A stretch of DNA of 64,000 nt, taken from positions 780 through 64,779 of the forward strand of contig CAIQHB010000002.1 in the NCBI GenBank assembly GCA_903871465.1, written 5' to 3'. Below the pieces are notes generated by a model. The model was not told the origin of the DNA and did not search any database. It saw only the letters and a list, made by a program, of their open reading frames with translations. This document shows positions 3,357-36,142 of the stretch, in pieces; within the stretch, counting starts at the first letter, position 1, and every line of letters begins with the position of its first letter. This DNA comes from an uncultured Methanosarcinales archaeon. GTDB lineage: Archaea > Halobacteriota > Methanosarcinia > Methanotrichales > Methanotrichaceae. A program made the translations under genes and the position numbers.

Positions 3357-3437
3357 GATCCAGATCTCCAAAAGCTGGTGGCTTAAAGTTACGTCCCGAC
3401 CTAAAGCTTTTATGGTTCGAAGGGCTTGGGCCCAGGG

Positions 3438-4412: not shown

Positions 4413-4424
4413 CTTGATAACGGT

Positions 4425-16938: not shown

Positions 16939-17319
16939 TCAAAGAGTGTCCGGCGGGCATACAATCATATTTATATATCCCTGCAAAGTCTCGACCTTTT
17001 TCGCCTCTGTCGGCGTCCAGTTCTCATCAACCATAGGCTCCCACGGTCCGCCTTTCTTGCACCACTTCATGAGATCTTCCACGCTATAAAATCCAGAAGA
17101 CATTCCGTTGGATCTATCCTCGAAAAACCCAAAGAATCTCTTGCCGATCGGCCCGTACTCCGCGAGATACCAGTGCATATTCTTTCCGTTAAAGAGATGC
17201 AGGTAAATCCATTCGGCCCCAGTGCAAAAGTGGAATTGCGATAAGTTGGGCAGACGGGTTAGATCGCTAGGTGTTAAATCGGTAAATTTCTTGGTCAAAT
17301 AATGGCCTCCATAGTCCAT
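16939..17319 (-). CDS. Hypothetical protein, DUF2958-like
   Basis: YLHLFNG..HWYLAEY...FFGF...SGFYSVEDL...W.P pattern resembles DUF2958 (judged by eye). Confidence 0.5.
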   Translation of the reverse strand: MDYGGHYLTKKFTDLTPSDLTRLPNLSQFHFCTGAEWIYLHLFNGKNMHWYLAEYGPIGKRFFGFFEDRSNGMSSGFYSVEDLMKWCKKGGPWEPMVDENWTPTEAKKVETLQGYINMIVCPPDTL

Positions 17320-17483
17320 GCATTATTTCTGATTGGTTCTTCATTAAGTATCCGCTCCAAGCCCCAGGCAACAGATCCTTCTTGTACGGTATCCTTACGG
17401 AAACGCTCTACTCTATATATGTAGGTATCCTAAATATACGTTTAAATGATGAAAATTTGATCTGATATCCCAGGAATATAGAC

Positions 17484-18335
17484 ATGACAGAGCCATTTGT
17501 AGATACTGAAACGGATAGAACCAAGTCCAGGTGGTTGGCAAATGCATATCATGACTTTGTGGCGGAGATCGGCAGATCGAGGACCACGCTCAGAGGATTA
17601 TTCTACTATGCACTGCAGCGGAAAGTATCAGATTATCCCATCTGTGGATGGTTCGTCGGCGAGATCAGGATTACAAGGCCATATCACGAGAGCGACGGGG
17701 AGAAGCTGCCTAAATGGATGGGCAAAGCAAGGAAGCTGGGATTCGTTCCCGCGGATGCCATACTGGACGAGATTCCTGGAGAGCATGTCTTCTTGCCAGA
17801 GCTTTGTCAGAAGAGACCCTATTCCATCGAAGTTTGGCTGAATAAGTCCGCTCTCAATCCACTATTATTTCCTATTTGTGAGAAACACGGCGTGACTCTC
17901 GTTTCAGTCAATGGCAAGGCTTCGGTTGATGCCATCAAGGCTTTTTACCAGCGCTGCAATGGTCCGACCGTCATCCTCTGCCTCTCCGACTTAAGCTCTG
18001 ACAGCGCATTCTTTTGCCGGGATCTGGCGACCAGGATAGCAGAATCGAAGATATCAGGAAGCGATACGAAGATAAAATTGAAACACATTGGTCTCAAGCC
18101 TGATCAGGTACTGGAGCTGAAGATTCCCATGGTCCAGGGAAGAGCGGATTCCAAAGAGAACCTGGAAAAGTTCAAGATGTATCTCAAACCTCGCTCCCTT
18201 GATTACAGAAAGATGGCGGAACTTGATGCCATGGAGGTCTATTATCCAGGGGGCATAGCAGGTTTCCTGGATAAATCGCTTTCCCAATACGGTTGCGACT
18301 TTAATCTCGATGATGAATCCTGGTTATGTATTTGA
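17484..18335 (+). CDS. Top6A/Spo11-like (winged helix plus Toprim) protein with degenerate acidic motifs
   Basis: TLRGLFYY, KARKLGFVP...ILD, IEVWLNKSAL, ILCLSDLSSDS, HIGL..DQV..L.IP and ELDAM motifs. Confidence 0.6.
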   Translation: MTEPFVDTETDRTKSRWLANAYHDFVAEIGRSRTTLRGLFYYALQRKVSDYPICGWFVGEIRITRPYHESDGEKLPKWMGKARKLGFVPADAILDEIPGEHVFLPELCQKRPYSIEVWLNKSALNPLLFPICEKHGVTLVSVNGKASVDAIKAFYQRCNGPTVILCLSDLSSDSAFFCRDLATRIAESKISGSDTKIKLKHIGLKPDQVLELKIPMVQGRADSKENLEKFKMYLKPRSLDYRKMAELDAMEVYYPGGIAGFLDKSLSQYGCDFNLDDESWLCI

Positions 18336-18472
18336 TTATCTCTTAATATGAGTGGTGGATAGAGAGGAGAGGGATCCAGACAATTTCGGGGTTTTCTGAA
18401 ACCCAAAGCCCTCTCCCAGAGTTCCCTATCCGCCGATGATTACGGATCAAGCATCCGTACTTATGCTGCGGC

Positions 18473-18631
18473 CTATGCAGGCTTTTTGCTTCCCAAAGCA
18501 ACCATGGCTATACCAGCGCCAGCAACTAATATATCTCCCACAACCATATTCATTATAGCGCCGCCTGAAGAGAATATCGCAGCTATTCCTATAAGGAACA
18601 ATGCTCCACCAACCATTGCACTCGTTTGCAT
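18473..18631 (-). CDS. Unannotated 52-aa two-TM microprotein
   Basis: MQTSAMVGGALFLIGIAAIFSSGGAIMNMVVGDILVAGAGIAMVALGSKKPA; SD GGAGGTGA upstream. Confidence 0.65.
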   Translation of the reverse strand: MQTSAMVGGALFLIGIAAIFSSGGAIMNMVVGDILVAGAGIAMVALGSKKPA

Positions 18632-18754
18632 TTCTTTCCTCACCTCCTATTTTGCAAAATTGTAACCTTATGACATTGGATTTGGTTCACAATTGCATGC
18701 GGAGTATAAATGCTTTATCGTCGACTGCAACGTTTGTAGAGTCCTAAGAGCTTG

Positions 18755-18885
18755 GCATTTTATACTTCTAAGAGTACGTAAACTTGGCCTAACTTGAAAG
18801 TTTACGCGAGCGTTGTGGCGGGGTTCAGCCATCATCCGCCGTGCAATTGAGGGCCAGAAAGAGATCATCAATCTCTCGACCCTCA
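18755..18885 (+). ncRNA. Copy 1 of a repeated TATA + palindrome + hairpin element (candidate ncRNA or leader)
   Basis: TTTATA 18759-64; CGTAAACTT-N12-AAGTTTACG; 45 nt identical to copy 2; terminal stem TGAGGG/CCCTCA with inner AGAGAT/ATCTCT. Confidence 0.55.
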
Positions 18886-18906
18886 TATCGTCACTCTCAA
18901 GTTCTG

Positions 18907-20916
18907 TCAGATCTCATCGTACCTAAAGGTGTACTTTCCGTCTATTTTCAAGGGAGGCAAGCTTCTGGTCAGCGCCATGGCGATGATATTGGCAAAAGAC
19001 TCCAGAAGTCTGCGCTGTTCTGGGACAAGTAGGCGATCATGGCCTCCCTGCCTCACCCCTAGTACTCCGACAATATCATCCTTAGCTTTGAGTGGAAGAT
19101 AGAACAAGGTAGCAGAGGAAAGCGTTTCCGTTCCGCGTCCAGCGGGCTGCCCTCTTCGAAAAACCCAGCTAGCTACGCCCAGCTTGCGTTCATCCAGCTC
19201 CATATTCTCGCCCAAATGAGCCAGTACCTGCAGCCTTCCCATCTCATCCGGCAGCAAAATCATGACATCGCATAGAAAGGCCTCCGAAATTTCTTTAGTT
19301 GCATAGTTCAGCAACTCTTCTAGATTCTTAGCCGCCATAAGGTCGCGACTGAATGAGTATAGAGCGGAGACAAAACGCTCTCTCTGACGGATATTCTCCC
19401 TCTGCCATCTGATCTGGTCAGTGAGGATGCTGGTTAAATTTCCGACTATTATGAAGACCAAGAACAATGGCATGTAATGAAGGTCCGTAGGGGAGATAGA
19501 TAGCTGAGGGGGAACAAAGAAAAAGTCAAAAGCTAACACTGCCATAAGAGACGCCATCAAACCCGCACTTTTGCCCCAGGTCATCCCGCTGTAGACGACT
19601 GGCAATAGAAGCATTACTTCGGTGTTGACAAGCCCCAGCCATGCGTAGATTATCCAGCAAAAAAGTGTCATCACAGCCACGCTGGCAAAGCTGCCGTAGA
19701 ACTGCATCAAGTCTATAGGACTTGAGGATGCTGGCATCTCAGAAACCTTCTGTTCAGTCTCAACGCTACCTATGACCAGAACATGAATTGATCCGCTGTT
19801 ATTGACGATCTCATTGACAACTGAGCCCCTGAGCAATCTATTCCAGAGACTCCGACGCGGGAGACCTACAATTATTGCTGTTACGTTGTTCTGTCTGGCA
19901 AAGGAAAGGATGATCTCGGAGATCTTATATCCGTTGAGGAGTTGGATCCGTGCCCCCAGGTTTTCTGCCAGCATTATATTATGTTCCAGCTGGTCCTTTT
20001 CCGCCTCAGTGGGCGACCTTTCTTGAGGAGATTCCACATGGACGGCAAACCATTCGGCATCTTGATCGGCGGCCATGCGCTGACCTATGCGCACCAGCCG
20101 TTCCGAGAGCGGGCTGGTGCTAACGCAGACCAGCAGCCTTGAGCCGGCCTGCCACGGCCCCATGATGCCATGCTCCACCATGTAGGTGCGCATATCCTCG
20201 TCCACCTTTCGAGCAGCATACCTGAGCGCCAGCTCGCGGAGTCCAAGCAGGTTCCCTTTTCGAAAAAAGCGGCTCAGGGCCAGCTTTGCCTGGGGCGCTA
20301 CGTATACCTTGCCATCTTTGAACCGTTGCAGCAGCGCCTCAGGTGGAAGATCAACTACTTCGATATCATCTGCCAGCTCCATTATCTTGTCCGGAAGGGT
20401 TTCGGTGATTCGCACTCCCGTGATCTCATATACGATATCTTTGAGGCTTTCGATATGCTGAATATTCAGGGTGGTGTATACACTGATACCCGCATCCAGC
20501 AGCTCTTCTACGTCCTGATATCGTTTGGAATAGCGTGAATCCGAGGCATTATTGTGGGCCAGCTCGTCCACCAGGGCGACGGCTGGATGACGTGCCAGGA
20601 CGCCGTCCAGATCCATCTCTTCCAAGGTGACCCCCCCATGTACCAGATGGCGACGAGGAAGGACCTCCAGTCCATCCAGAAGAGCCTCGGTATCCTGCCG
20701 TCCATGTGTCTCTACCACAGCAATAACGACATTGACGCCATTATTTTTTAGGGCTCGAGCCTCTTCCAGCATTTGGTAGGTCTTGCCCACGCCTGCGGCA
20801 GCACCGAGAAAGATCTTAAGCCGTCCCCTGTTGCGAGCGGCATCCTCTGCCTCCTGCTCTTCATGCTGGAGACGCTGCAGAATTTCGTCCGGATCGGGAC
20901 AGTCCTCTCCGCTCAT
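18907..20916 (-). CDS. kdpD: KdpD sensor lacking the histidine-kinase domains
   Basis: GAAAGVGKT, ETHGR and ALVDELAH KdpD-N domain; Usp domain; 4 TM; GAF; ends before any H-box. Confidence 0.9.
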   Translation of the reverse strand: MSGEDCPDPDEILQRLQHEEQEAEDAARNRGRLKIFLGAAAGVGKTYQMLEEARALKNNGVNVVIAVVETHGRQDTEALLDGLEVLPRRHLVHGGVTLEEMDLDGVLARHPAVALVDELAHNNASDSRYSKRYQDVEELLDAGISVYTTLNIQHIESLKDIVYEITGVRITETLPDKIMELADDIEVVDLPPEALLQRFKDGKVYVAPQAKLALSRFFRKGNLLGLRELALRYAARKVDEDMRTYMVEHGIMGPWQAGSRLLVCVSTSPLSERLVRIGQRMAADQDAEWFAVHVESPQERSPTEAEKDQLEHNIMLAENLGARIQLLNGYKISEIILSFARQNNVTAIIVGLPRRSLWNRLLRGSVVNEIVNNSGSIHVLVIGSVETEQKVSEMPASSSPIDLMQFYGSFASVAVMTLFCWIIYAWLGLVNTEVMLLLPVVYSGMTWGKSAGLMASLMAVLAFDFFFVPPQLSISPTDLHYMPLFLVFIIVGNLTSILTDQIRWQRENIRQRERFVSALYSFSRDLMAAKNLEELLNYATKEISEAFLCDVMILLPDEMGRLQVLAHLGENMELDERKLGVASWVFRRGQPAGRGTETLSSATLFYLPLKAKDDIVGVLGVRQGGHDRLLVPEQRRLLESFANIIAMALTRSLPPLKIDGKYTFRYDEI

Positions 20917-21509
20917 CGCATGCGGCTCCCGGCCAGTTCATCCAGGGCAATGTTCAGCTTGAGAACGTTCACCCTCTCCTGTCCGAAGATGCCGAACTGG
21001 AGGGGCTCGATATGCCGATCAACCAGCACTCTGACATCAAACTCCGGTAGTCCCCTCGCTTTGGCCACTCGTGGAACCTGCAGGAAGGCACTTGCCGCGC
21101 TGATATGGGGATCAAGGCCGCTCCCCGAGGCCAGCACCAGATCCGCGGGCACCGTGGCATTGGCCGGCAGACCGTTCTCGCTTCTCACCTGCTTGACTCT
21201 CTCGCGCACTTGATCCATAAGTTTGGCGCTTGTCGGCCCCAGGTTGCTGCCCCCAGAGTTGCTGGCGTTATAGTCTACGGCAGACGGGCGACCATGGAAG
21301 TAGGCAGGGCTGGTGAATTTCTGTCCGATCAGCTCTGAGCCTACCAGAGTACCGTTCACGTATAGAAGGCTTCCATGGGCCTGATTGGGCATGGTCGTCT
21401 CGGCCACAAAGGTAACGAAGAACGGGTAAGCCAGACTGAGCAAACACACCAGCCCGAAGAGAAGGACGCAGGTCTTCGCCTCTCTGAGGATCTCATTCTT
21501 GTCCATCAA
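20913..21509 (-). CDS. kdpC: K+-transporting ATPase subunit C (copy 2)
   Basis: GSELIGQ.FT...YFHGRPSA, SGGSNLGP, SGSGLDPHIS and VNVLKLN motifs. Confidence 0.95.
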   Translation of the reverse strand: MMDKNEILREAKTCVLLFGLVCLLSLAYPFFVTFVAETTMPNQAHGSLLYVNGTLVGSELIGQKFTSPAYFHGRPSAVDYNASNSGGSNLGPTSAKLMDQVRERVKQVRSENGLPANATVPADLVLASGSGLDPHISAASAFLQVPRVAKARGLPEFDVRVLVDRHIEPLQFGIFGQERVNVLKLNIALDELAGSRMR

Positions 21510-21510
21510 C

Positions 21511-23547
21511 TCACTCCAAGTGCAAAAGCACTACTAATATGTCCACCAGCTTGATCCCGATGAATGGTATAATCAATCCGCCCAGGCCATAGACTACCAG
21601 GTTGTACCGAAGCAGCGATTCGGTTGTGGCCGCACGGTAGCTGACTCCTTTTATTGCTAGAGGTATCAGCGCTGGAATTATCAGTGCATTGAAGATGACT
21701 GCCGACAACACAGCACTGGCGGGTGTGGCCAGTCCCATTATGTTCAAAACCTCCAACTGCGGATAGGAGGTGGCAAATATGGCAGGCAGGATGGCGAAGT
21801 ACTTGGAAACGTCGTTGGCCACAGAAAAGGTGGTCAAGGCTCCTCTGGTCATCAGGAGCTGCTTTCCAATCTCGACTATGTCCAGCAGTTTTGCCGGATT
21901 GGAGTCAAGGTCAATCATGTTGGCCGCCTCCCTGGCGGCCTGAGTTCCGGCGTTCATGGCCACAGCCAGATCAGCCTGAGCCAGGGCCGGAGCATCGTTT
22001 GTTCCGTCTCCAATCATTGCCACCATGTGGCCATCCTTCTGGTATCTTCTGATGGCATCAAGCTTGAATGCCGGGCGTGCCTGGGCCATGAAGTCGTCAA
22101 TGCCCGCCTCTGCAGCAATGGCTGCGGCAGTTACCGGATTGTCTCCGGTTATCATGACGAACCTTATGCCTAACTTGCGCATGTTATTTAGCCTCTCTCT
22201 GATTCCCTCCTTTATAACATCCTTCAGCCTGATAGCTCCCAGAACTTTGATGCCTTCGACCACAACAAGAGGAGTCCCACCTTCTCTCGCGATCCTATCA
22301 ACGGCAGCATTTACCTCATCAGGGGTGGATAGGCCTACGCTTTTTATAAGATTGTCCATGGATTCCGCAGACCCTTTTCTGATCTGAACGCCATCAATGT
22401 TTATTCCGCTCATGCTGGATATCGGACTGAATGGCACGAAAGTCGAACCTTCTTTCGGTCTGATATCCCGTCCTCTGATTCCTAGGACCTGTTTGCACAG
22501 CTCCACAATGCTGCGGCCTTCGGGGGTATCGTCCGCCAGAGAGGAGAGCATTGCCGCCCTGGCGATCTCTTCGATGGACACTCCTGGCGCAGGGATGAAC
22601 TCGGTGGCCATTCTGTTGCCTAGAGTAATTGTGCCGGTCTTATCCATCAGCACCAGATCAACGTTTCCTGAGGCTTCCACGCCCCTGCCGGAGAGAGCTA
22701 TGACATTGTTCTGCAGCAATCGCTCCATGCCTGCTATGCCGATGGCTGGCAGGAGGCCGCCGATTGTTGTTGGTATTAGGCAGACTAGCAGCGACACCAG
22801 CACGACAAGACTTATGCTTACTCCCACATAGTTTGCAAACGGCACAAGGGTGACTACAACGATGATGAATATGGCAGTCATCCCTATGAGCAGAATCTCC
22901 AGAGCACGCTCATTAGGGGTCTTCTGACGCTTGGCGTTTTCGACCATTGAGATCATCTGGTCCAGGAAGGTCTCACCTGGATCCACTGTTACCTTGACGG
23001 TGATCTTTCCGGATATGACCTTTGTCCCGCCAGTAACGCCGCGAAGAGTGCTGCCTGGCTCACGGACGACTGGAGCCGACTCTCCCGTTACTGCTGATTC
23101 ATCCACGAGGGCAGTACCTTCTATTACCTCACCATCGCCTGGTATGATCTCGCCATTGTTCACCACATACAGATCGCCCTTGCGAAGATCCAATGCAGGG
23201 ATCTGCTCAATGCTTCCGTCATGCAGCTGTCTATTGGCCATAGCCTCGCTTCGGGCCAATCGCAAGCTCTCAGCCTGGGCCTTGCCCCTACCTTCTGCCA
23301 GAGCCTCGGAGAAGTTTGCGAATAGAACTGTGAACCAGAGCCAGATGCCGATCTGTATATCGAACTTGAAGTTTCCGCCAGTGAGTACGTCGCCCAAGGC
23401 ATTCAATGTAGTCAAGAACGCTCCGATCTCCACTACAAACATCACCAAATTGCGCCACTGGACGCGTGGATCGAGCTTGAGGAATGCATCCTTGACTGCC
23501 TGGCCAACTATATCAGATTCCAGGAGTTTTGTAGTCTTACCGCGCAT
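21511..23547 (-). CDS. kdpB: K+-transporting P-type ATPase subunit B (copy 2)
   Basis: [25 protein letters not shown] and ANDVSKYF motifs. Confidence 0.97.
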
Positions 23548-23560
23548 GCTATTGTCCCTC

Positions 23561-25261
23561 CTAGAAGGTCCTCCCCGACGTCATGAGCAGATGCTCCAGA
23601 ATCGGACCAATCGTCGCCACAGGGAAGAAACACAGGGCGCTAATTACGAAGACCACGAAGACCACCGCTATGATAAAGAGCGGGCTTGCAACAGGCAGAG
23701 TCGCAGCGCTTATGGGTATCTGTCCCTTCCTGGCCATAGAACCGGCAATGGCAATGCCCACCAGCAAGGTGGAGTACCTTCCCAGGATCATGCAGGGCGG
23801 GGTCATCAAATTGATGATATAGCTGTTCACGTTCAACCCACCCATAAATGAGCCGTTGTTGATGGACGCCGAAGTAAAGGCGAATAGCATTTCCGTCAAT
23901 CCATGAGGACCGGCATTGCCGAGTACCGCCATACCTGCCGCTGAAACGATGACAATAGCAGTCGTCATCAGCGATGAGAATGATGAGAACAGGAAGGAGG
24001 CCCCGGCAAGTATGATCTCACGGAGTTCAACCTTCTTGCCGATGAGCTCGGGTGTTCTGCCGGTCATGAGCCCAGCTATGAACATGGTCACTATGAAGTA
24101 GTGAATCAATGCCATAGGGCCCTCACCGATACACCCAAAGATGGGCGCTCCGATGACTACCATGAAGATGATCGTCAATATAGTGAGGGGCATCACGCTA
24201 TCGTGCTGAGATACGGTAGAGCCGTTCGCAGGAGCCATTCCGACTATTATGTACATGATATGTTCGAACATGGAAAACCGCATCTCTTTGCCCTCCATGT
24301 TCACGCCACCCTGGACGCCTAATTTTTCAAGCAGCGGATTTCCCTGATTCTCCGCGTAGAAGGGAAGGGGCATGACCAGTATGAACAGCACCAGCATGAC
24401 AGAGAACAGCGCTTTGGTCGTGTCACGGCTGATGGCCAGCTTTCCTATCATTACAACAATTGAGGCCGGAACGAACAGTATGTATGCCATTGTAAACCAA
24501 TTGGTAAACGGCGTCGGATTTTCGAAGGGATGAGCCATGCTGTTGGCAAAGTAGTTGGCTCCGTCCTCGCATATCAACTGGTATATTATGATTGTTGCCG
24601 CAGGGCCTCCCGGTATAAGCTGCACTCCACCTTCCAGTGTGTGAGCAACGGCATAAGGATCGAAGTTCTGCACCACGCCCTGAGAGATGAGAGGAAATAC
24701 CAGGATCAAGCCAAGGGGTATCCACACATAGAGTATGGCCCTTGTGAAATCGACCCAGAAGTTGCCTACCGTGGGACAATGCTTACGGCTGAAGGATCGC
24801 GCCAGAACAACTATGGCCACGAATCCGACTGAGGGGCTGATATAGTCCTCGACAAGAACCCCAAGCATCTGTGACATATAGCTTAGATCGCGCTCGCCAC
24901 TGTAAGCTATCCAATTGGTATTTGTTACCCAAGAGATGGCAGAGTTCACGGCCCAATCCCACCTGAAGGAGCTAACCCCATGAGGATTTAAGGGAAGCAC
25001 ACCCTGCAGCGACAGGATCATGAACGCAAATACAACCCCGAGGGTCTCGAAGCCCACAAGGGTTGCAACATATTTCTTCCAGGTCATCTCGCTGAACTCA
25101 TTGATGCCGCATACCCTGTAGATTCCTCGCTCTATTGGTCGTAATAGAGGAGTAAGCAGATTTGGCTCTCCTTTGAAGACCTTTGCGAGGTGCCACCCAT
25201 AGGGAAATGCCAGTATCAGAGTCACGACTATAACGGCAAAATATGCCAATTCCTGCAGCAT
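23561..25261 (-). CDS. kdpA: K+-transporting ATPase subunit A (copy 2), atypical filter
   Basis: TNTNW, HPFENP, EGKEMRF, GRTPE..GKKVE, HGLTE and NNGS motifs. Confidence 0.93.
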
Positions 25262-25386
25262 TTTATATCGTCCTCATAGATGATGAAAATTTCATTATCT
25301 CGTTCCGAATGAAATATAGGCGAAACATCTTTGTTCATTGATTTCCGAGCTGCAGCCGTTTAGGTCTGAATCCATTTTTTTTGGCT

Positions 25387-25551
25387 TCAAGATGCCCAGC
25401 CCCCGCCAAAGAAAAACATCACCACAATCCACCACAAAAGGATTAATGCTACAACTATCGCAATGCCTTTGATTATCTCCTTGCCTTCTCTTTCTGAGAT
25501 CTCTCTCAGATCGGCGATCATCTTGGCATCTTCACTGCTCGATGTTGACAT
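25387..25551 (-). CDS. Unannotated 54-aa single-TM microprotein upstream of kdpA copy 2
   Basis: MSTSSSEDAKMIADLREISEREGKEIIKGIAIVVALILLWWIVVMFFFGGGWAS; SD GGAGTGA upstream. Confidence 0.65.
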   Translation of the reverse strand: MSTSSSEDAKMIADLREISEREGKEIIKGIAIVVALILLWWIVVMFFFGGGWAS

Positions 25552-25860
25552 TTTAATCACTCCATTCAGCCGGACATATTCTCATTTATCGCCTAGGAAT
25601 TATATCTCATGAAATATTATTTTTATCCTAAAAATTTCTGAGATAATAGGATAATATCTCAAAATTGTGCTTCAGTAACCTTGATATATAAGCCGCAATG
25701 CGACGCAGTGTTTACTGCACGTCCTACTACTGTGGGATCTATGATATCATAGGACGATGTCATAGAGGCCTTTCATAAAAGTTCTTAATACTTAAGAATA
25801 CCCCTCGATAAGAACAGTGCGACGAAAAATGTGCGAGAGATTCGCTTTGCGATGATGAAG

Positions 25861-25947
25861 TACTGCGAGCAGCATCCTCAGCCTCCTGCTCTCCATGCTG
25901 GAGAAGCTGCCGAAATGTGTCAGGATCGAACTTTCCTTGCCATTCAT
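25861..25947 (-). pseudogene. kdpD: 5' remnant of kdpD after kdpC copy 1
   Basis: About 29 codons align with the start of the intact kdpD (…CTCCAGCATGGAGAGCAGGAGGCTGAGGATGCTGCTCGC), with a 1-nt deletion at codon 7 and the same ATGA overlap with kdpC. Confidence 0.85.
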
Positions 25948-26540
25948 CGCTTGCGGCTCATGGCCAATTCATCCAGGGCCATGTTCAGCTTGAGAACGTT
26001 TACCCTCTCCTGTCCGAAGATGCCGAACTGGAGGGGCTCGATATGCCGATCGACCAGCGCCCTTACATCGGTCTCAGGCAGTCCCCTCGCTTTGGCCACT
26101 CTTGGAACCTGCAGGAAGGCACTTGCCACGCTGATATGCGGGTCCAGGCCGCTTCCCGAGGCCAGCACCAGATCCGCGGGCACTGTGGCATTGGCCGGCA
26201 GACCGTTATCGATTCTCACCTTTTCGATCCTCTGGCGCACCTGCTCCATCAGCGCGGCACTTGTCGGCCCGTAATTGCTGCCGCCCGAGTTGTTGCCGGC
26301 ATAGTTCACGGCCGAGGGGCGGCCATGGAAATAGCCCTGGCTGGTGAAGTTCTGTCCTATGAGCTCAGAGCCCACGACTGTGCCATTCATGTACAGCAGG
26401 CTTCCATTGGCCTGGTAGGGCATAATAGTCTGGGTACTCCAGTTAATGAATAGAGTATAAACGATGCTGAGGACACAGACGACTATAAACAGCAACACGC
26501 ATGCCCTCAAATCTCTAGCCAACTCATTCTTGTCCATCAT
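25944..26540 (-). CDS. kdpC: K+-transporting ATPase subunit C (copy 1)
   Basis: Same KdpC motifs as copy 2. Confidence 0.95.
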   Translation of the reverse strand: MMDKNELARDLRACVLLFIVVCVLSIVYTLFINWSTQTIMPYQANGSLLYMNGTVVGSELIGQNFTSQGYFHGRPSAVNYAGNNSGGSNYGPTSAALMEQVRQRIEKVRIDNGLPANATVPADLVLASGSGLDPHISVASAFLQVPRVAKARGLPETDVRALVDRHIEPLQFGIFGQERVNVLKLNMALDELAMSRKR

Positions 26541-26541
26541 C

Positions 26542-28578
26542 TCACACCAGGTGCAACAACACTACGAGTATGTCCATCAGTTTGATGCCGACGAAGGGCA
26601 CAATCAGCCCCCCCACGCCATATATCAACATATTTCTTCGCAGCAGATCCTCTGCTGAGCTCGGTGTGTATCGAACGCCCCTCAATGCCAGAGGAATGAG
26701 CAGTGGTATGATAAGCGCATTGAATATCACCGTTGCCAGCACCGCGCTTGTAGGCGTGGAAAGCTGCATGACATTCAGCACATTCAGCATTGGATAGCTA
26801 TATGCAAACATAGCAGGCAGTATGGTAAAGTACTTGGAGACGTCATTGGCCACTGAGAAGGTGGTCAGAGCTCCGCGAGTGATCAGGATCTGCTTGCCTA
26901 TCTCCACGATATCCAGCAGCTTGGCTGGGTTGGAATCCAGATCGACCATGTTAGCGGCCTCCCTCGCTGCCTGCGTTCCTGCGTTCATGGCCACGGCCAC
27001 ATCCGCCTGGGCAAGAGCCGGTGCATCGTTTGTGCCATCTCCAATCATTGCCACCATGTGACCTTCATTTTGATACCTGCGAATGGCCTCCAACTTTGCC
27101 TCCGGGCGGGCCTGGCCGATGAAGTCATCAATGCCCGCTTCTGCAGCAATGGCTGCGGCAGTGGTGGAGTTATCTCCCGTGATCATGACCGAACGTATGC
27201 CAACCTTGCGCAAGTTTGATAGGCGCTCTTTTATGCCCTCTTTTAGCACATCCTTCAGGCGAATGGCTCCCAAAACCCTGGACCCTTCAGCAACGAGAAG
27301 AGGAGTGCCGCCTTCTCTGGCTATACCCTCCGCTGCGGCTCTGATATCTTCCGGGACATTGCAGGCATAGGATTTCATTAACTCCTCTATAGCATCGCTT
27401 GCTCCTTTTCGAATCTCTCGGCCCTCCAGGTTTATTCCGCTCATGCGAGTCTCGGCACTGAAGGGCAGGAAGGCAGAACCCTCCTCGGGCCGAATATCTC
27501 TTCCCCGAATGCCCAGGACAGACTTGGAGAGCTCCACTATGCTGCGACCTTCCGGGGTAGTATCTGCCAGGGAGGAGAGCATGGCTGCCTCTGCGAGATC
27601 ATCGATGCGGACTCCTTCGGCCGGGATGAACTCAGTCGCCATTCTATTCCCAAGAGTGATGGTGCCGGTCTTGTCCATCAGGACCACATCCACATTTCCA
27701 GCTGCTTCCACCGCCTTGCCGCTCAATGAGATCACATTGCTCCGCAGCAGCCTTTCCATGCCTGCAATTCCGATGGCAGGCAAGAGGCCCCCGATGGTGG
27801 TAGGCATGAGGCAGACCAGCAAGGCCATAAGAATAGGTATGGATAGCGACACGTTCATGTAGCCTGCAACAGGCACCAGCATGATCACTACTACTCCAAA
27901 CATCAGAGTCATGCCCACAAGCAGCATCTCCAAGGCTCGCTCATTGGGCGTCTTCTGTCGCTTGGCGCTCTCAACCATGGCAATCATCTGGTCCAGGAAG
28001 GTCTCACCCGGATTCGCGGTTATGCGGGCTTTGATCAGACCGGAGATCACCCTCGTTCCGCCGGTTACGCCGACCATGCTGCCCCCCGGCTCACGCACCA
28101 CGGGCGCCGACTCGCCGGTTATGGCAGATTCGTCCACCAAAGCCACACCATCCACGATCTCTCCGTCACTGGGTATGGTCTCGCCATCCCCTATCTGCAC
28201 GAGATCGCCCTTGCGCAGATCTAATGCATAGACTGGCTCCAAGCTGCCATCCCCCAGCAGCCTGTTGGCCATGGCCTCGCTTCGAGCCTGGCGCAGGCTC
28301 TCTGCCTGGGCACGGCCACGACCTTCGGCCAGAGCTTCGGAGAATGTTGAGAACAGCACCGTGAACCAGAGCCAGATGCTGATCTGAATATTGAGTCTAA
28401 AGTCTCCCCCCGTGAACAGATCGTAGACAGCTATCACGGTGCTAAAGGCTGAAACCATTTCTACTATAAGCATCACTGGGTTTCGCCAAAGGGCGCGAGG
28501 GTTCAGCTTCAGAATGGAGTCCTTTGCCGCAGCTCTTATCAGGTCCGATTGCCACAGATCGTATGTCTTAGTGTGCAT
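26542..28578 (-). CDS. kdpB: K+-transporting P-type ATPase subunit B (copy 1)
   Basis: TGES, PTTIGG, DKTGT, KGA, GDGTND and ANDVSKYF motifs. Confidence 0.97.
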   Translation of the reverse strand: MHTKTYDLWQSDLIRAAAKDSILKLNPRALWRNPVMLIVEMVSAFSTVIAVYDLFTGGDFRLNIQISIWLWFTVLFSTFSEALAEGRGRAQAESLRQARSEAMANRLLGDGSLEPVYALDLRKGDLVQIGDGETIPSDGEIVDGVALVDESAITGESAPVVREPGGSMVGVTGGTRVISGLIKARITANPGETFLDQMIAMVESAKRQKTPNERALEMLLVGMTLMFGVVVIMLVPVAGYMNVSLSIPILMALLVCLMPTTIGGLLPAIGIAGMERLLRSNVISLSGKAVEAAGNVDVVLMDKTGTITLGNRMATEFIPAEGVRIDDLAEAAMLSSLADTTPEGRSIVELSKSVLGIRGRDIRPEEGSAFLPFSAETRMSGINLEGREIRKGASDAIEELMKSYACNVPEDIRAAAEGIAREGGTPLLVAEGSRVLGAIRLKDVLKEGIKERLSNLRKVGIRSVMITGDNSTTAAAIAAEAGIDDFIGQARPEAKLEAIRRYQNEGHMVAMIGDGTNDAPALAQADVAVAMNAGTQAAREAANMVDLDSNPAKLLDIVEIGKQILITRGALTTFSVANDVSKYFTILPAMFAYSYPMLNVLNVMQLSTPTSAVLATVIFNALIIPLLIPLALRGVRYTPSSAEDLLRRNMLIYGVGGLIVPFVGIKLMDILVVLLHLV

Positions 28579-28587
28579 GCGGTCCTC

Positions 28588-30288
28588 CTAGAACGTTCTC
28601 CCCAATTGCATGAACAGATGCTCCAGAATCGGGCCGAGCATCATAATCGGGAAGAACTGCAGGGCGTTCACTATTATGACCGTGCCTACCACCAGGATGA
28701 TGAAGAAGGGGCTGGTCACGGGCAGGGTTGCTGCGGTCATTGGAATGATCTTCTTCTTGGCCAGCGACCCGGCAATGGCCAGAGCCGTGAACATAGTGGA
28801 GTACCTCCCGATAGCCATTCCCACCACGATGGTCAGATTGTAGAATGGCGTGTTAGTAGTCAGGCCCGCGGCAGGCGAGCCGTTGTTGACGCATATGGAT
28901 GCATAGTTGTAAAAGATCTCCATCAGCCCATGCGGTCCGTAATTATTCAGGCCCGCGAGGGCAAGGGGCAAAGATATGGCGATCCCTGTGAAGACCAGTG
29001 TGGGCAACGATGATGACAGGAGTGATACCGCTGCCAGGATGATCTCCCGGGGTTCGATCTTCTTGCCCGCCATCTCCGGTGAACGGCCGGTCATGAGCCC
29101 TCCCAGGAACATTGCCAGAATGAAGTAATAGAGCATGGTTATTATGCCCTCGCCCCAGCACCCGAATATTGGCGCTCCCACCACTATGTTCCAGAGTATT
29201 CCCATGAAGCTGAGAGGCAGCACGCTGTCATGCTGGACGAGGGTCGAGCCGTTGGCGGGACACATGGAGGTCAATGTCCAGATCATGTCCTCGAATAATG
29301 TGAAGCGCATCTCCTTGCCTTCCAGGTTCATGCCGCCTGCGACGCCCAGCTTTTCCAGTATCGGATTTCCCTGAAACTCCGGGTAGAGGTAGAAGGGCGA
29401 TGATAGCAGATAAAGCGCCAGCATGGCTCCGAAAAGCGCCCATCCAATCTTGCGGTTCCTGATCATCTCTCCGAAGGCAAAGCACATCGAGGCCGGGACG
29501 AGCAACATGATGCACATCTCAAATGCATAGGATAGGGGCGTGGGAGTTTCGAAGGGATGGACCGCATTCACGTTGAAGAAGCCGCCTCCGTCCTCGCACA
29601 CTATCTGCATAGCGATCAGGCCTGCCGCCGGCCCGCCTGGTATGAGCTGCTCTGCCCCCTCCAACGTCTTTGCTGTGACATAAGGGTTCATATTCTGTAT
29701 AACACCCTGAGAGGCGATGGCAAAGGCCAAGATTAAGGCCAAGGGCAAGATGATGTAGAATACAATCCGGGTCACATCGACCCAAAAGTTGCCAATGGTA
29801 TCGAAGTTCTTGCGGACAAAGCCCCGGATCAAGGCGACGCTGCAGGCCAATCCCACGGCCGGGCTGAGAAAGTCCTGAACAATGACTCCCAGAATCTGGG
29901 AGAGATAGCTCATGTCCCGCTCACCGGAGTAGACCTGCCATTCGGTATTGGTGACGAAAGAGAATGCCGTGTTCAGAGCAGTATCCCAGCGAAAAGAGCC
30001 GAGCCCCTGAGGATTGAGGGGAAGAACGCCCTGCAACATGAGGAGCATGAAGAAGAAAGCAATCCCCAGCACTTCGAAGCAAATAAGCATCAAAAGGTAG
30101 TTCTTCCAGGACATCTCTCTCTGCTCGTCAATTCCACACAGGCGGTAAATTATCTTCTCCACGGGCCGGATAATCGGCGTGAGCAGATTTGAATCTCCGT
30201 TGAAGACCCTCGCCATGTACCTGCCATAGAATACTGCCACTGCAAGACAGGCGGCTATAATGGCCACATGCGCCAATTCGACCAGCAT
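28588..30288 (-). CDS. kdpA: K+-transporting ATPase subunit A (copy 1), atypical filter
   Basis: TNTEWQ, GGGFFNVN, HPFETP, EGKEMRF and NNGS motifs. Confidence 0.93.
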   Translation of the reverse strand: MLVELAHVAIIAACLAVAVFYGRYMARVFNGDSNLLTPIIRPVEKIIYRLCGIDEQREMSWKNYLLMLICFEVLGIAFFFMLLMLQGVLPLNPQGLGSFRWDTALNTAFSFVTNTEWQVYSGERDMSYLSQILGVIVQDFLSPAVGLACSVALIRGFVRKNFDTIGNFWVDVTRIVFYIILPLALILAFAIASQGVIQNMNPYVTAKTLEGAEQLIPGGPAAGLIAMQIVCEDGGGFFNVNAVHPFETPTPLSYAFEMCIMLLVPASMCFAFGEMIRNRKIGWALFGAMLALYLLSSPFYLYPEFQGNPILEKLGVAGGMNLEGKEMRFTLFEDMIWTLTSMCPANGSTLVQHDSVLPLSFMGILWNIVVGAPIFGCWGEGIITMLYYFILAMFLGGLMTGRSPEMAGKKIEPREIILAAVSLLSSSLPTLVFTGIAISLPLALAGLNNYGPHGLMEIFYNYASICVNNGSPAAGLTTNTPFYNLTIVVGMAIGRYSTMFTALAIAGSLAKKKIIPMTAATLPVTSPFFIILVVGTVIIVNALQFFPIMMLGPILEHLFMQLGRTF

Positions 30289-31103
30289 TTAGTCCTCCGT
30301 GCATCAAATTTTAGTATGTAATAAATAGCAATTTGAGTTATAATTAATAAATTGATTGATATAAATAATTACGAAATTATCGGGTACGCTGGCCCGACAC
30401 AAAAGTGCTCGGGATAGGAAGAGTGTTGAAAACTTGTGCCAGGACATATGTTAAACTGAACACGACAATAGTTTTGGTTTTCATGGCAGGCATGATTAAG
30501 TTTGGAATCATATCGGAGTCACCTGTAATTCGGGCTTGGGTTTGCACTCGACCTCAGAACTTGCCTTCGTGTGCTAGGACTGATTCTCATAGTGCCATTC
30601 TCCATGGGAACTAGCATACGGTCAAATCTGATATATAAAAACTTTTGAGAATTTTTATGAGAAATTATGAGAAATTATGATCGCTCTTAAGATCATTACG
30701 TGAAGTAAATAATACATCCAGAGAGGACACCGATTGCTTCGCGTTTGTGGGTAGTGCATTTCCCATACAAATCAAAGTCCAAGATGTCAAGCATTTGATT
30801 TTTCATTTGCCACATGCTAGCCCGCTTCCCCAGGATCATAGGAGTTTCAACTATGATCTTACGAATTGGCACCTCCAATAGATCAAAGTTCAATATCTTT
30901 GCCAATTTGGACGTGCCTTGCTTCTCCCTGGGCCCTCGAACCATCCCGGAAGTAGAAGGCTCCACGACGCCAATACATAAATTTTTTATTGAATAAAAAG
31001 CAATGTGATTAAAATACTGACAATTATCTACCACATATTGAAAAGTTAGTCCGCCTCCCAAAGGCAATAAATCCAAAATACGATCTTTAAAACGCAGGAT
31101 AAA

Positions 31104-31228
31104 GCATTTATACTTCTAGGAGTACGTAAACTTGGCCCAACGCTAGAAGTTTACGCGAGCGTTGTGGCGGGGTTCAGCCATCATCCGCCGTACAATCGAG
31201 GCCAGCCTAGAGATTGCTGGTCCTCGAT
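31104..31228 (+). ncRNA. Copy 2 of the repeated TATA + palindrome + hairpin element
   Basis: TTTATA 31107-12; CGTAAACTT-N13-AAGTTTACG; CAACGCT/AGCGTTG; GGCGG/CCGCC; terminal stem ATCGAGG-CCAGC/GCTGG-T-CCTCGAT. Confidence 0.55.
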
Positions 31229-31273
31229 CCTCTCATCACCGCTAATCATCCAAAGCTTAATTCCAAGGCGAAT

Positions 31274-31864
31274 ATGAATAAGAGCATCCCGAAACCAAGT
31301 TTATATATAGTTACGCCGGCTGCGACCCAACATACTGACAGGACTATTCTTGATCTCGAAATCTATCTAACAAATAGCAACAATTTTAGATCCTGCATTT
31401 ATGATCATCGAGAGGTCAAGTCCATGGCAGAACGTTTTGGCTTATCCCCGGATCGAATTCGTTCTGAGCTAAGACGTCTCGGCTATCAATTGACTAATAA
31501 CGGTCATGGCCGGATGGTCTGGAAGAGTAAGGAAGGCGAACATATGAATTATGCCAAAAAGATCGCCTCCCTGGAAGAATATATTTCGAAATGCGAAGCC
31601 AGACAGCTGCAGTTCTACGATAGATCTGAAATTGGCAGGATCGCGAAGAAAAGCGGAGTAGACCGTGACTCCGTCAGAGCTGTACTGAGGCGCAGAGGCT
31701 ATAAATTGAGCCTGAATGCACACGATATAGCTGTTTGGGTTAAGAGACAGAGCACTGACACCGGATCGCTGGTTTCCGGCGCTTTCGCCGGTTCGGTTCT
31801 AGTTATGGGGACCGCGTATTGCAGCAGTCTTTATACTTGCCATCAATTTTTGTACCAGCTCTAG
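31274..31864 (+). CDS. Hypothetical protein with two tandem HTH/winged-helix-like domains
   Basis: IYDHREVKSMAERFGLSPDRIRSELRRLGYQL..W versus FYDRSEIGRIAKKSGVDRDSVRAVLRRRGYKL..W; ATG 31274 is the likely start. Confidence 0.6.
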   Translation: MNKSIPKPSLYIVTPAATQHTDRTILDLEIYLTNSNNFRSCIYDHREVKSMAERFGLSPDRIRSELRRLGYQLTNNGHGRMVWKSKEGEHMNYAKKIASLEEYISKCEARQLQFYDRSEIGRIAKKSGVDRDSVRAVLRRRGYKLSLNAHDIAVWVKRQSTDTGSLVSGAFAGSVLVMGTAYCSSLYTCHQFLYQL

Positions 31865-31918
31865 CTTTTCATCTATCCAAGACAAGAGGCAGCCCGGTAG
31901 AAATTTTCGTGTTTTATA

Positions 31919-33274
31919 TTATATTACGTTTTGGCATTCTTGCTCCGTATACAGTCTCTCCAACCAGCTTACCCCAAATAGAAATGCTGCAGAGACCGCT
32001 ATGCCAAGCAGAGGATACTTCTGGCCCAGGAAGATTGCTGTTAGTCCGCCTCCAACCAATGCTGCCAACGCGCCGGAAGGCGTAAGGCCCAGCCTATCTC
32101 TATAGAATCCGGCAATAACCGGCAAGAGCAGGCCACTGGTGAAGACGGTATAAGCAATAAGCAGGGTCTTAATGATGCCGGGCATTGAGACCGCCAATGC
32201 AAGGGCTGAAATCCCTATGCCTAACACGGAAAGCCTTGAGACTGCCATCAGTTTCCGTTCACTCGAATCCGGGCTTATTTTTCTGTAAATATCCAGAGTC
32301 AAAATGGATGTGGCGGTCATCAGGCTCGTGTCTGCTGATGACATGAACGCCGCCAGTAGGGCGGCTGCCACCAAGCCTTCTGTGCCGGAGGATAGCAGTC
32401 CTGTCAGGAGCAGCGGGATCGCCTGCTCAGGGGAAGCCGCAGGATAGAGCGACCGGGCGAAAATACCAAGCGAAGTAATCAGGAAGGCCGTCGGGATAAG
32501 GATGACAGCTGCGATCGCCGCCGATACCTTTGCTTCCCTGGGGCTATGGGCAGAGAACAGACGGGAATACATATCAGGACCGACCAGGTACGCCGAGCCG
32601 ACAACCAATAGCATGGTCAGTACATCGCTTGACCCCATCTCAGGAGATGCAGGAAAGCTTTGGCCCTGGAGCAAGCCGGGTCCGCCGGCCTCTAAGGCTT
32701 TGAAAAAAAGGACGGTCATTCCTGTTAATATTATGACTAACTGCACCAGGTCGGTCCTTATCACAGAGCTCTGACCTCCGTGAACTGTGTAGAGCACAAA
32801 GACTGCCGTGCAGGCAATCATGAATAGGGTCTCATTTCCCCCGAATACCGCTCCCAGCACCTTGCCTGAAGCCACGATCTGCACCGCAATGACTCCCACC
32901 CAGGAGATTACAATGAGGGTGGAAGCGACAAACCTTGCCCTTTCCCCATAGAAAGAGCCCACCAGTTCGGGCAGAGTGTAGCATCCTGTAGCCCTAACTT
33001 TCTCAGCAAAAAAGGTCGCCAGCACCAGCAGGCCCGCCGTGCCGGAGAGCATCCACCATGCACCTGGCAGGCCCTTGCTGAAGCCCAAACCTGCCATGCC
33101 CAGAGTTGCCGAAGCGCCGATGATGGTGGCACAGAATGTGCCTGTAAGAAGAACCAGCTTTATGCTCCGCCCCGCCAGGTGGAAATCCTCCAGTCCTTTC
33201 ATGCGAAGCCCCCAAGCGCCTATGGCAAGCATCGCCAACAAGTATACGACTATTACGACGGCAGCCAGGTCCAT
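31919..33274 (-). CDS. Sodium:solute symporter family protein
   Basis: DFHLAGRS, TLPELVG..YG, GGQSSVIRTDLVQ and AAFMSSADT motifs; about 13 TM. Confidence 0.9.
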   Translation of the reverse strand: MDLAAVVIVVYLLAMLAIGAWGLRMKGLEDFHLAGRSIKLVLLTGTFCATIIGASATLGMAGLGFSKGLPGAWWMLSGTAGLLVLATFFAEKVRATGCYTLPELVGSFYGERARFVASTLIVISWVGVIAVQIVASGKVLGAVFGGNETLFMIACTAVFVLYTVHGGQSSVIRTDLVQLVIILTGMTVLFFKALEAGGPGLLQGQSFPASPEMGSSDVLTMLLVVGSAYLVGPDMYSRLFSAHSPREAKVSAAIAAVILIPTAFLITSLGIFARSLYPAASPEQAIPLLLTGLLSSGTEGLVAAALLAAFMSSADTSLMTATSILTLDIYRKISPDSSERKLMAVSRLSVLGIGISALALAVSMPGIIKTLLIAYTVFTSGLLLPVIAGFYRDRLGLTPSGALAALVGGGLTAIFLGQKYPLLGIAVSAAFLFGVSWLERLYTEQECQNVI

Positions 33275-35206: not shown

Positions 35207-36142
35207 TTAGAGCGTCTTCTTAAAGGGATGATCCTCGGTCAGAACCTTCAGCCCCAGTTCCTCGGCAGATTCCGCCTTCATGATGTCCACCATTGCGGCA
35301 GCGGGGAAGATCATGGGTGCGTTCTCGATGGGACCGTACAGGTAGAAGTCAGCTCCCAGGATGCCGGCTACCAGGTTGGAGCCGATATCCACGGGTGCGA
35401 AAGCTTCCTTATGCTGTTTCTTCCACTGCTTCATCCAGTCCCAGGCGGAGGCTGCGTTGTGGAAGCCAGCGCCCACGGGCAAGCCCAGCTGAGCCTTGAC
35501 TGCAATGCAGGCCCTGTAGGTGGCACCGGAGCCGTTGCCTAAGGGCATCGCCGCAACATCCAGCAGAATCCTGGTGATGCCGCATTCCTTGGCGTAATCC
35601 AGCATTCCCATCTTGGCGCCGCCGGCAGCCTTGGTCAGGATGTTCATCTTGCCCACGGTTCCCTTCTCCATGGCGTTGAATGCCAGGACGATGGCGGCAT
35701 CGAGGTCGCTCTCCTTTACTGCCTTCAGCTCTTCCGGTGTGATGGAGGCGTTGATGGAGTTATGGACGGCCCTGTTGGCCACGCCGATCTCAGAGGCGTA
35801 CTTGACGCCAAAGGCGCGCACCTCTGGTGCAGAGGAGTCGATGAGGAACGGATAGTCCGAAAGACCTACAAACCAGTCGATCTCCTTCTTCATGGCCTCA
35901 TTGCTCTCAGCGACGATCTGGTTCATACAGGAGTTGCCGGTTATGTCGCTCATCTCAACCTGTGCATTCCAGAGCCTCTCGGCCGCAGCCGTATCAAAGA
36001 CTCCGTGCTCCGCATCGGAGACAATCTTGTGCCTGGCATAGAACATGGTGCCTATGCAGCACGTGGGGTACTCTCCAGGCTGGCCCCCAACCTTGAACTT
36101 GCCGAATTCGAAGACTTCTTGCTTCCTATCAAACTTAAACAT
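35207..36142 (-). CDS. mtrH: H4MPT S-methyltransferase subunit H
   Basis: MFKFDRKQEV, GGQPGEYPT, GTMFYARHKIV and LYGPIENA; last gene of the operon. Confidence 0.97.
   Translation of the reverse strand: MFKFDRKQEVFEFGKFKVGGQPGEYPTCCIGTMFYARHKIVSDAEHGVFDTAAAERLWNAQVEMSDITGNSCMNQIVAESNEAMKKEIDWFVGLSDYPFLIDSSAPEVRAFGVKYASEIGVANRAVHNSINASITPEELKAVKESDLDAAIVLAFNAMEKGTVGKMNILTKAAGGAKMGMLDYAKECGITRILLDVAAMPLGNGSGATYRACIAVKAQLGLPVGAGFHNAASAWDWMKQWKKQHKEAFAPVDIGSNLVAGILGADFYLYGPIENAPMIFPAAAMVDIMKAESAEELGLKVLTEDHPFKKTL

Follow-up and report, generated by a model that had tools for sequence, protein, structure and literature searches.

A rare, conserved KdpA subfamily with an acidic residue pair at the base of the selectivity filter, represented twice in tandem kdpABC operons of a Methanotrichaceae genome

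The 64-kb stretch of archaeal DNA analyzed here (hereafter, the window) contains two complete kdpABC operons in tandem on the minus strand, with a gap of 680 nt between them and all six open reading frames (ORFs) intact. The question that this locus raises is whether the two KdpA subunits, with their unusual selectivity filters, still belong to K+ pumps. KdpFABC is a model for the coupling of a channel-type selectivity filter to a P-type pump, and its very high affinity and selectivity for K+ are ascribed to the S3 site, the charge at the filter mouth and the vestibule residue Glu370. A first-pass annotation of the same DNA had quoted the altered filter motifs and proposed a subfamily with added acidic filter residues, a changed ion specificity or affinity, and a division of labor between the two copies. 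The quoted motifs are present in the translations of the two intact kdpA genes, the "copy 1" of that annotation being the gene of the upstream operon, denoted alpha below; the downstream operon is denoted beta.

Both proteins are readily recognized as KdpA by profile comparison, with PF03814 matches at E 6e-192 and 8e-167 and TIGR00680 scores of 601 (alpha) and 506 bits (beta), compared to 701 bits for the canonical copy of the same genome and a curated cut-off of 388. Because both exceed the cut-off of this NCBIfam KdpA equivalog, annotation pipelines label such proteins as ordinary KdpA. In each operon, kdpB and kdpC directly follow kdpA. The filter strings of both copies were mapped to E. 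coli positions 110-116, 228-237, 341-347 and 465-469 by phmmer alignment to 6hra_A and 5mrw_A (E 1e-135 and 1e-120), and E. coli numbering is used throughout. P-loop 2 carries G229C, T230E and N231D in both copies, and P-loop 3 carries S343A, C344N, A346S and V347T; the N466-N467-G468-S469 string of P-loop 4 is kept in both. N114E in P-loop 1 is found in alpha only, whereas Q116I in the same loop, together with G233A and G234N in P-loop 2, is found in beta only. In the vestibule, alpha has GAPIFGC in place of GEVVFGG. The side-chain ligands of the S1 site, Q116 and N239, are both lost in beta, whereas alpha retains them. The changes typical of the new type affect the filter base (230, 231, 343, 344), the D3M2 loop (370, 371, 375, 376) and D1M2 (137).

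The overall architecture is that of the E. coli KdpFABC complex (5MRW, 6HRA, 7NNP and the 2.1 A E1~P.ADP structure of PMC12629597), to which the window proteins are linked by about 40% full-length identity, the gene order kdpA-kdpB-kdpC, the filter glycines G232, G345 and G468, R493 and the KdpB ion site. The AlphaFold2 model of alpha KdpA (predicted local distance difference test score, pLDDT, 88.6; predicted template modeling score, pTM, 0.89) superimposes on 7nnp_A, 5mrw_A and 6hra_A with template modeling (TM) scores of 0.94-0.96 and a root-mean-square deviation of 1.7 A; it keeps the four-fold membrane-pore-membrane (MPM) channel fold and shows a helix break at 370-379 under the filter. 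In contrast to E. coli, KdpA of the window carries T230E, N231D, S343A, C344N, E370A, V371P, G375C and N137D, and the system has no recognizable KdpF, a kinase-less KdpD, no KdpE, and three pumps in one genome. The Glu370 position, which accounts for one of only two residues bearing a charge within the membrane core of E. coli KdpA, is occupied by Ala, a loss that the first-pass annotation did not mention. KtrB, TrkH and HKT, relatives within the superfamily of K+ transporters, share the four-repeat MPM fold (Foldseek TM about 0.5), with a single conserved glycine in each P-loop; unlike these proteins, the new type is coupled to a P-type ATPase and keeps all three KdpA filter glycines. In HKT, a Gly-to-Ser change in the first loop switches the transporter from K+ to Na+.

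The unusual filter strings are not chance variants because the same residues recur in all 53 full-length proteins of a group of relatives, as compared with no more than 1% of 179 canonical KdpA. We define this "ED type" by position 230, which is E (rarely L), and position 231, which is D (rarely N). It accounts for 58 of the 120 best relatives of the alpha copy among 5.8 billion protein clusters, and a second search with the beta copy added only three members, for a total of about 60 clusters at 90% identity. The spread of the CED motif, left for checking by the first-pass annotation, is narrow: the motif is absent from E. coli KdpA, the only characterized family member with solved structures, and in about 125 representatives of KdpA diversity (50% clustering) E-D at 230/231 occurs only in the query's own cluster. 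In a FastTree phylogeny of 126 rows, the ED type forms one side of a single branch (support 100, stem 0.38); under LG+C20, IQ-TREE gives the branch a Shimodaira-Hasegawa-like approximate likelihood ratio test support of 100 and a stem of 0.50, the longest inner branch of the tree. The ED branch is placed among canonical KdpA of Methanothrix and syntrophic bacteria.

For the tree and the column counts, 53 full-length ED proteins were used, and the columns were compared with those of 179 canonical KdpA. The signature consists of N137D, M216G, T230E, N231D, G296P, T340M, A342P, M350Q, E370A, V371P, G375C, V387F, I398T, A420S and G495S, which are fixed in 89-100% of the ED proteins and found in no more than 5% of the canonical ones; S343A and C344N (PANGST) are also fixed in the ED type. 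In particular, E230, D231 and A370 are present in 96, 98 and 100% of the ED sequences, respectively, compared with T/S230 in 87%, N231 in 93% and E370 in 73% of the canonical set, so that the latter three residues are typical of the KdpA family but do not define it. N112, G232, G345, N467 and G468 are invariant in all 53 ED sequences, and nearly so are T113 (T or S), N466 (T in two sequences) and R493 (K in three). The ED type gains the acids E230, D231 and D137, to which alpha adds E114, and the cysteines C229, C341 and C375. It falls into two parts, alpha (NTEWQ, xEDGGGFFN), which includes the upstream window copy, and a beta/gamma/delta type, to which the downstream copy belongs as beta and in which Q116 is replaced or W115 is Y, G233/G234 are lost, and Q116 and N239 are both lost. 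Taken as one well-supported clade with E230-D231 and other fixed changes, the ED type bears out the earlier proposal of a subfamily with added acidic filter residues; it is a coherent, rare, old and conserved subfamily that is apparently undescribed, and no description of it was found in open-access papers and bioRxiv preprints. A separate KdpA lineage, represented by P0171 and P0253, has GENGG in loop 2, with E230 alone and without Glu370; its loop 1 variants are rich in Q and H (LVNADLQHY in P0171 and TNTDQQHL in P0253).

The KdpB subunits are far closer to the canonical form, with 72-75% identity of ED-operon KdpB to the canonical pump of the same genome, versus 46-53% for KdpA. As stated in the first-pass annotation, both window KdpBs contain DKTGT, TGES and ANDVSK; they score 966 (alpha operon) and 981 bits (beta operon) against TIGR01497, with a cut-off of 528, and, together with ten other ED-operon KdpBs, keep T75, S162, F232, P264, T265, D307, D583, K586 and N624. 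A tblastn search with E. coli KdpF, a hydrophobic peptide of about 29 aa whose gene immediately precedes kdpA, detected no counterpart near either window kdpA. The 54-aa protein encoded upstream of beta kdpA has a charged N-terminal half followed by IAIVVALILLWWIVVMFFFGGGW and no match in Pfam or NCBIfam. The gene is found upstream of every Methanotrichaceae beta kdpA examined (60-79% identity) and is absent from the alpha, gamma and delta loci; the protein may be an accessory subunit of the pump.

With respect to regulators, the window encodes a KdpD without HisKA or HATPase domains and no KdpE, which does not amount to a KdpD/KdpE two-component system. Across loci, ED-type operons adjoin kdpD (in the window and in L010) or kdpD-C/kdpE (in the bacterial locus L035, a deep-branching alpha-type operon next to which a KdpD-type kinase with HisKA/HATPase and a response regulator of the KdpE type are encoded). 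At the loci annotated, ED-type operons had no linked nitrogen or metal genes.

The genome of origin (3.13 Mb, 99.6% complete) belongs to Methanotrichaceae, as indicated by the MtrH gene at 35207-36142 and the names of related proteins. It also encodes, on contig C37, a third KdpA (P0126) that was beyond the view of the first-pass annotation. This protein has the canonical filter TNTNWQ / LGTNGGG / TSDGAV / GNNGS, contains E370, unlike the window copies, to which it shows 53% (alpha) and 46% (beta) identity, and heads its own kdpABC-kdpD operon. Besides Kdp, the genome encodes one TrkH and no Kup. When one genome for each of 185,579 species was scanned with the pattern GGP-x11-EDG-x9-HPF, 19 loci were retrieved, 16 of which are truly of the ED type; the other three (L009, L014 and L021) are chance matches without Kdp genes. 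The true loci belong to six Methanotrichaceae metagenome-assembled genomes (MAGs), most of them with two or three ED copies, and to Dehalococcoidaceae, Chloroflexota and Chloroflexia MAGs. Any KdpA was found in 32 of 101 sampled Methanotrichaceae genomes. Alpha is present in six of these, namely the window's genome and five from genera g3 and g4, each time together with beta; a further genome, 99% complete, has beta without alpha. Of 54 genomes of the genus to which the window belongs, only the window's genome and one fragment carry the ED type. The ED-type pump is the sole KdpA and KdpB found in the beta-only genome and in three Chloroflexota genomes. The suggestion that it replaces the canonical pump in genus g4 was withdrawn for G019 and G029 because, immediately upstream of alpha, their contigs open within a kdpB of canonical type, and a canonical kdpA may lie beyond the contig end. 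A different tandem, in which a beta-like copy is paired with delta, is found on another metagenome contig.

One could suspect that the window copies are decaying, non-functional duplicates or an assembly artefact, given that broken frames occur in two relatives, in the kdpA of L017 and the alpha kdpA of L020. This is highly improbable in view of the six intact frames, the pLDDT of the model and the ratios of nonsynonymous to synonymous substitutions (dN/dS) of the window genes versus their orthologues, which are 0.08-0.16 for kdpA and 0.06-0.10 for kdpB; both kdpA copies are under purifying selection. Moreover, the whole tandem block is present in 8 freshwater or lake DNA runs from 3 studies, and parts of it are found in peat, permafrost and wetland samples. 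In L017, a Chloroflexia MAG (2998-4702), the ED-type kdpA is fragmented across five or more frames, and two frames each are needed to cover kdpB and kdpC; in L020 (3326-5042), the alpha kdpA is split near its start. The breaks may reflect genuine decay or indels introduced by the assembly. In peat and wetland RNA libraries, there are contigs that align with segments of both kdpA genes at 92-100%; one such piece, of 435 nt, is identical to the 5' end of alpha kdpA. This is suggestive of use, although DNA contamination of such libraries is possible.

What the ED residues might do can be gauged from the E. coli pump. There, S3 is a cage of eight backbone carbonyls, and the lower ligands of S4 are two side-chain oxygens (PMC12629597). 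The contacts of S1 come from Q116, N239 and G468, and immediately above the intramembrane loop of D3M2 the ion path bends to the side (PMC6255902). The charge at the mouth (Q116R, Q116E, Q116H) sets the apparent affinity, neutralization of Glu370 raises the Michaelis constant (Km) about 30-fold, and E370K nearly abolishes activity (PMC12629597). The mutants Q116R, Q116E, G232D and E370Q/H/K touch the same mouth, mid-filter and vestibule regions that are changed in the ED type and indicate that these regions set Km and selectivity, with coupling kept (PMC12629597; PMC8385062). Unlike these mutants, the ED variants never alter G232, and the loss of E370 is combined with the gain of E230/D231. 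The statement in the first-pass annotation that single substitutions at Q116 and G232-G234 change K+ affinity and admit Rb+ and NH4+ is correct with regard to cation admission for G232D only, whereas Q116R lowers affinity, not selectivity (PMC12629597). No mutant data for KdpA positions 230, 231, 343, 344, 371, 375 or 137 were found in the literature.

On the strength of the sequence comparison, ED-type pumps are predicted to remain K+ importers that work at the expense of ATP, with retuned affinity or selectivity; we assign this reading a probability slightly above one half (roughly 0.55). The altered ion specificity proposed earlier does not seem to be the most economical explanation. Retained K+ transport is favored because the glycines that form the filter backbone and the KdpB ion site are kept, KdpD/KdpE-type regulators are encoded nearby, and the ED pump is the sole Kdp in several genomes. 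All positions of the carbonyl cage (N112/T113, G232, G345, N466/N467/G468) are kept, as is R493. Mechanistically, the pull on K+ from S3/S4 into the intersubunit tunnel would be maintained by a negative charge shifted from the D3M2 loop (370) to P-loop 2 (230/231). T230 would correspond to the Thr of the K+-channel motif TVGYG, whose hydroxyl forms S4, and E230 would place a carboxylate at S4 as a substitute for the deleted E370, while D231, N344, Q350 and D137 would re-knit the scaffold behind the filter. The expected effect would be an altered apparent K+ affinity and pH dependence, perhaps with a shifted margin against NH4+ and Rb+, the substrate being unchanged. Alpha, with Q116, N239 and GGG kept and E114 added, would have a more negative mouth and is predicted to be the higher-affinity pump; beta, with a 54-aa membrane partner of its own and without Q116, N239, G233 and G234, is predicted to differ in affinity or selectivity. 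The two would be non-redundant partners of the canonical pump in an organism of dilute freshwater and peat habitats.

Several considerations weigh against this interpretation. The charge relocation is argued by analogy with K+-channel filters, through the equivalence of T230 and the Thr of TVGYG. Extra acids near the pore, three to four in number, and the length of the stem would also fit a change of substrate, three pumps in one genome are more readily understood if Km is not their sole difference, and the RNA-library contigs are no proof of kdpA transcription. Support for charge compensation between positions 230 and 370 across lineages is thin, given that an acid at 230/231 occurs in only five canonical sequences, of which the two E230 sequences have no E370, whereas E370 is retained in the two with D230.

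A genuine change of substrate, such that the ED filter admits or prefers a cation different from K+, which KdpB would pump inward, appears unlikely but has some appeal. Candidates would be NH4+, ions resembling Rb+ or Cs+, Na+, and a soft or divalent metal ion, drawn in by the new carboxylates and cysteines. The three to four new acids and the cysteines C229, C341 and C375 are grouped around the vestibule and the base of the filter, no inner branch of the tree is longer than the ED stem, and alpha, beta and the canonical pump coexist. In E. coli, G232D alone admits Rb+ and NH4+ with coupling kept, so that KdpA sets the selectivity and KdpB is promiscuous (PMC12629597). However, the ED type shows no variation at G232, G345, G468 and the carbonyl-donating positions, the K+ site of KdpB with its built-in counter-ion K586 is unaltered, and no filter mutant is known to admit Na+ (PMC8385062). 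Furthermore, the ED pump is the only Kdp found in four genomes, Kdp regulators adjoin it, and the annotated loci lack linked nitrogen or metal genes. In its boldest form, namely that the ED pumps are the first natural P1A ATPases to select an ion other than K+, for example, NH4+ captured by Glu230, Asp231, Cys229 and Cys375 below the filter, this idea is more doubtful still; if true, the methanogen would run three pumps with different substrates.

The predicted K+ pumps of the window also differ in their upstream regions. Between the TATA box and kdpA, the alpha operons of four genomes and the canonical Methanotrichaceae operons have a leader of about 330 nt in common (30289-30643 of the window, minus strand; L036 9464-9825, minus strand; L043-L054); the canonical operons resemble the window also in operon layout with a kinase-less kdpD. 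The conserved blocks of the leader are the TATA box, CATGGAGAA, and ATTTTGTnTCnGGnCAnCGT followed by GATAA, and local hairpins are present (GAGATC..GATCTC, ATCnGG..CCnGAT, TATAGTC..GACTATA). RNAalifold on the shared alpha/canonical leader yielded -2.3 kcal/mol and two short hairpins, with no convincing common fold, and an Rfam scan of 17000-33000 at E values up to 1 returned only two sub-threshold chance matches and no riboswitch. In beta operons, the upstream region differs from this leader. Just upstream of the alpha TATA box (30660-30700, minus strand), TCTCATAATT is found three times, and a TGAGA-N14-TCTCA palindrome is located upstream of the beta promoter (25640-25700, minus strand); both could be operator sites. 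The division of labor suggested in the first-pass annotation is plausible, with alpha and beta co-occurring in six genomes under purifying selection and with different leaders and accessory genes, but this support is indirect.

The difference between the leaders is also compatible with compensated drift, that is, a mutually compensating redesign without net functional change, in which the paralogs are kept for regulation or dosage. Consistent with such drift, 48 of the 179 canonical sequences lack E370 (alignment gaps account for 21 of them), and the position is cited as about 50% neutralized (PMC12629597); D114 is present in 13% of canonical KdpA, and the two other E230 lineages also lack E370, a hint of compensation. 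We nevertheless regard this explanation as improbable: sixteen signature columns were fixed, after a burst of change, in archaeal and bacterial members alike, beta, gamma and delta lost both S1 side-chain ligands, Q116 and N239 (PMC6255902), and single changes at 116 and 370 in E. coli shift Km 10- to 1000-fold (PMC12629597).

The beta operon is 87-91% identical at the DNA level to the beta operons of genus g3, with 93-97% identity of the KdpA protein and 0.23-0.35 synonymous substitutions per site (dS), whereas MtrH shows 88% protein identity to g3 and 90% to a genome of the same genus; alpha is 74% identical to its nearest genomic relatives. These values point to a probable, recent lateral exchange of the beta operon. 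The 3' halves of the two kdpC genes (25934-26233 and 20903-21202) are 89% identical, compared to 71-73% elsewhere, and a remnant of kdpD lies behind the alpha kdpC, which together indicate that the tandem consists of two joined kdpABC-kdpD units that later underwent gene conversion. The double-Kdp block spans 12.3 kb and is bracketed by direct repeats, both of which include a CGTAAACTT/AAGTTTACG palindrome and a TTTATA box; the right one lies in front of a helix-turn-helix gene. One wetland RNA-library contig joins 18747 to 31094, omitting the block, with only 27 nt on its shorter side, which is a weak indication of an "empty site". The features of the locus are listed in Table 1.

Table 1. 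Features of the double-Kdp locus (window coordinates)
Feature	Position	Strand	Details
Right copy of the bracketing direct repeat	31107..31214	.	88-94% identical
Alpha promoter (TATA near 30636) and leader of ~330 nt	30289..30643	-	Homologous to the canonical Methanotrichaceae kdp leader
kdpA, ED-type alpha	28588..30288	-	566 aa, P0002; TNTEWQ / CEDGGG / CPANGST / VNNGSP
kdpB, alpha operon	26542..28578	-	678 aa, P0004; catalytic and ion-site residues all canonical
kdpC, alpha operon	25944..26540	-	198 aa; PF02669, E 4e-70
Remnant of kdpD 5' end behind alpha kdpC	25864..25928	-	65 nt, 86% identical to 20832-20896
Gene for 54-aa single-pass membrane protein	25390..25551	-	Upstream of beta kdpA
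kdpA, ED-type beta	23561..25261	-	566 aa, P0001; TNTNWI / CEDGAN / APANGST / INNGSF
kdpB, beta operon	21511..23547	-	678 aa, P0003
kdpC, beta operon	20913..21509	-	198 aa; 3' half 89% identical in DNA to alpha kdpC
Kinase-less kdpD	18907..20916	-	KdpD-N, Usp, DUF4118, GAF; without HisKA or HATPase
Left copy of the bracketing direct repeat	18759..18865	.	~105 nt

Outside the repeats, a sodium:solute symporter family gene is located just beyond the right copy (31919-33274, minus strand), and a 283-aa ORF without a Pfam match lies to the left of the block (17484-18335, plus strand).

The ED branch is a natural, selected redesign of the KdpA filter region, in which the vestibule Glu is gone, an acid pair occupies the base of the filter and one sub-branch has also given up the S1 ligands. 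As such, these pumps are ready-made constructs for relating the position of charge to affinity, selectivity and hand-over into the tunnel. In the biology of the organisms that carry them, ED-type pumps may account for K+ retention by methanogens and Chloroflexota living in peat and dilute freshwater.

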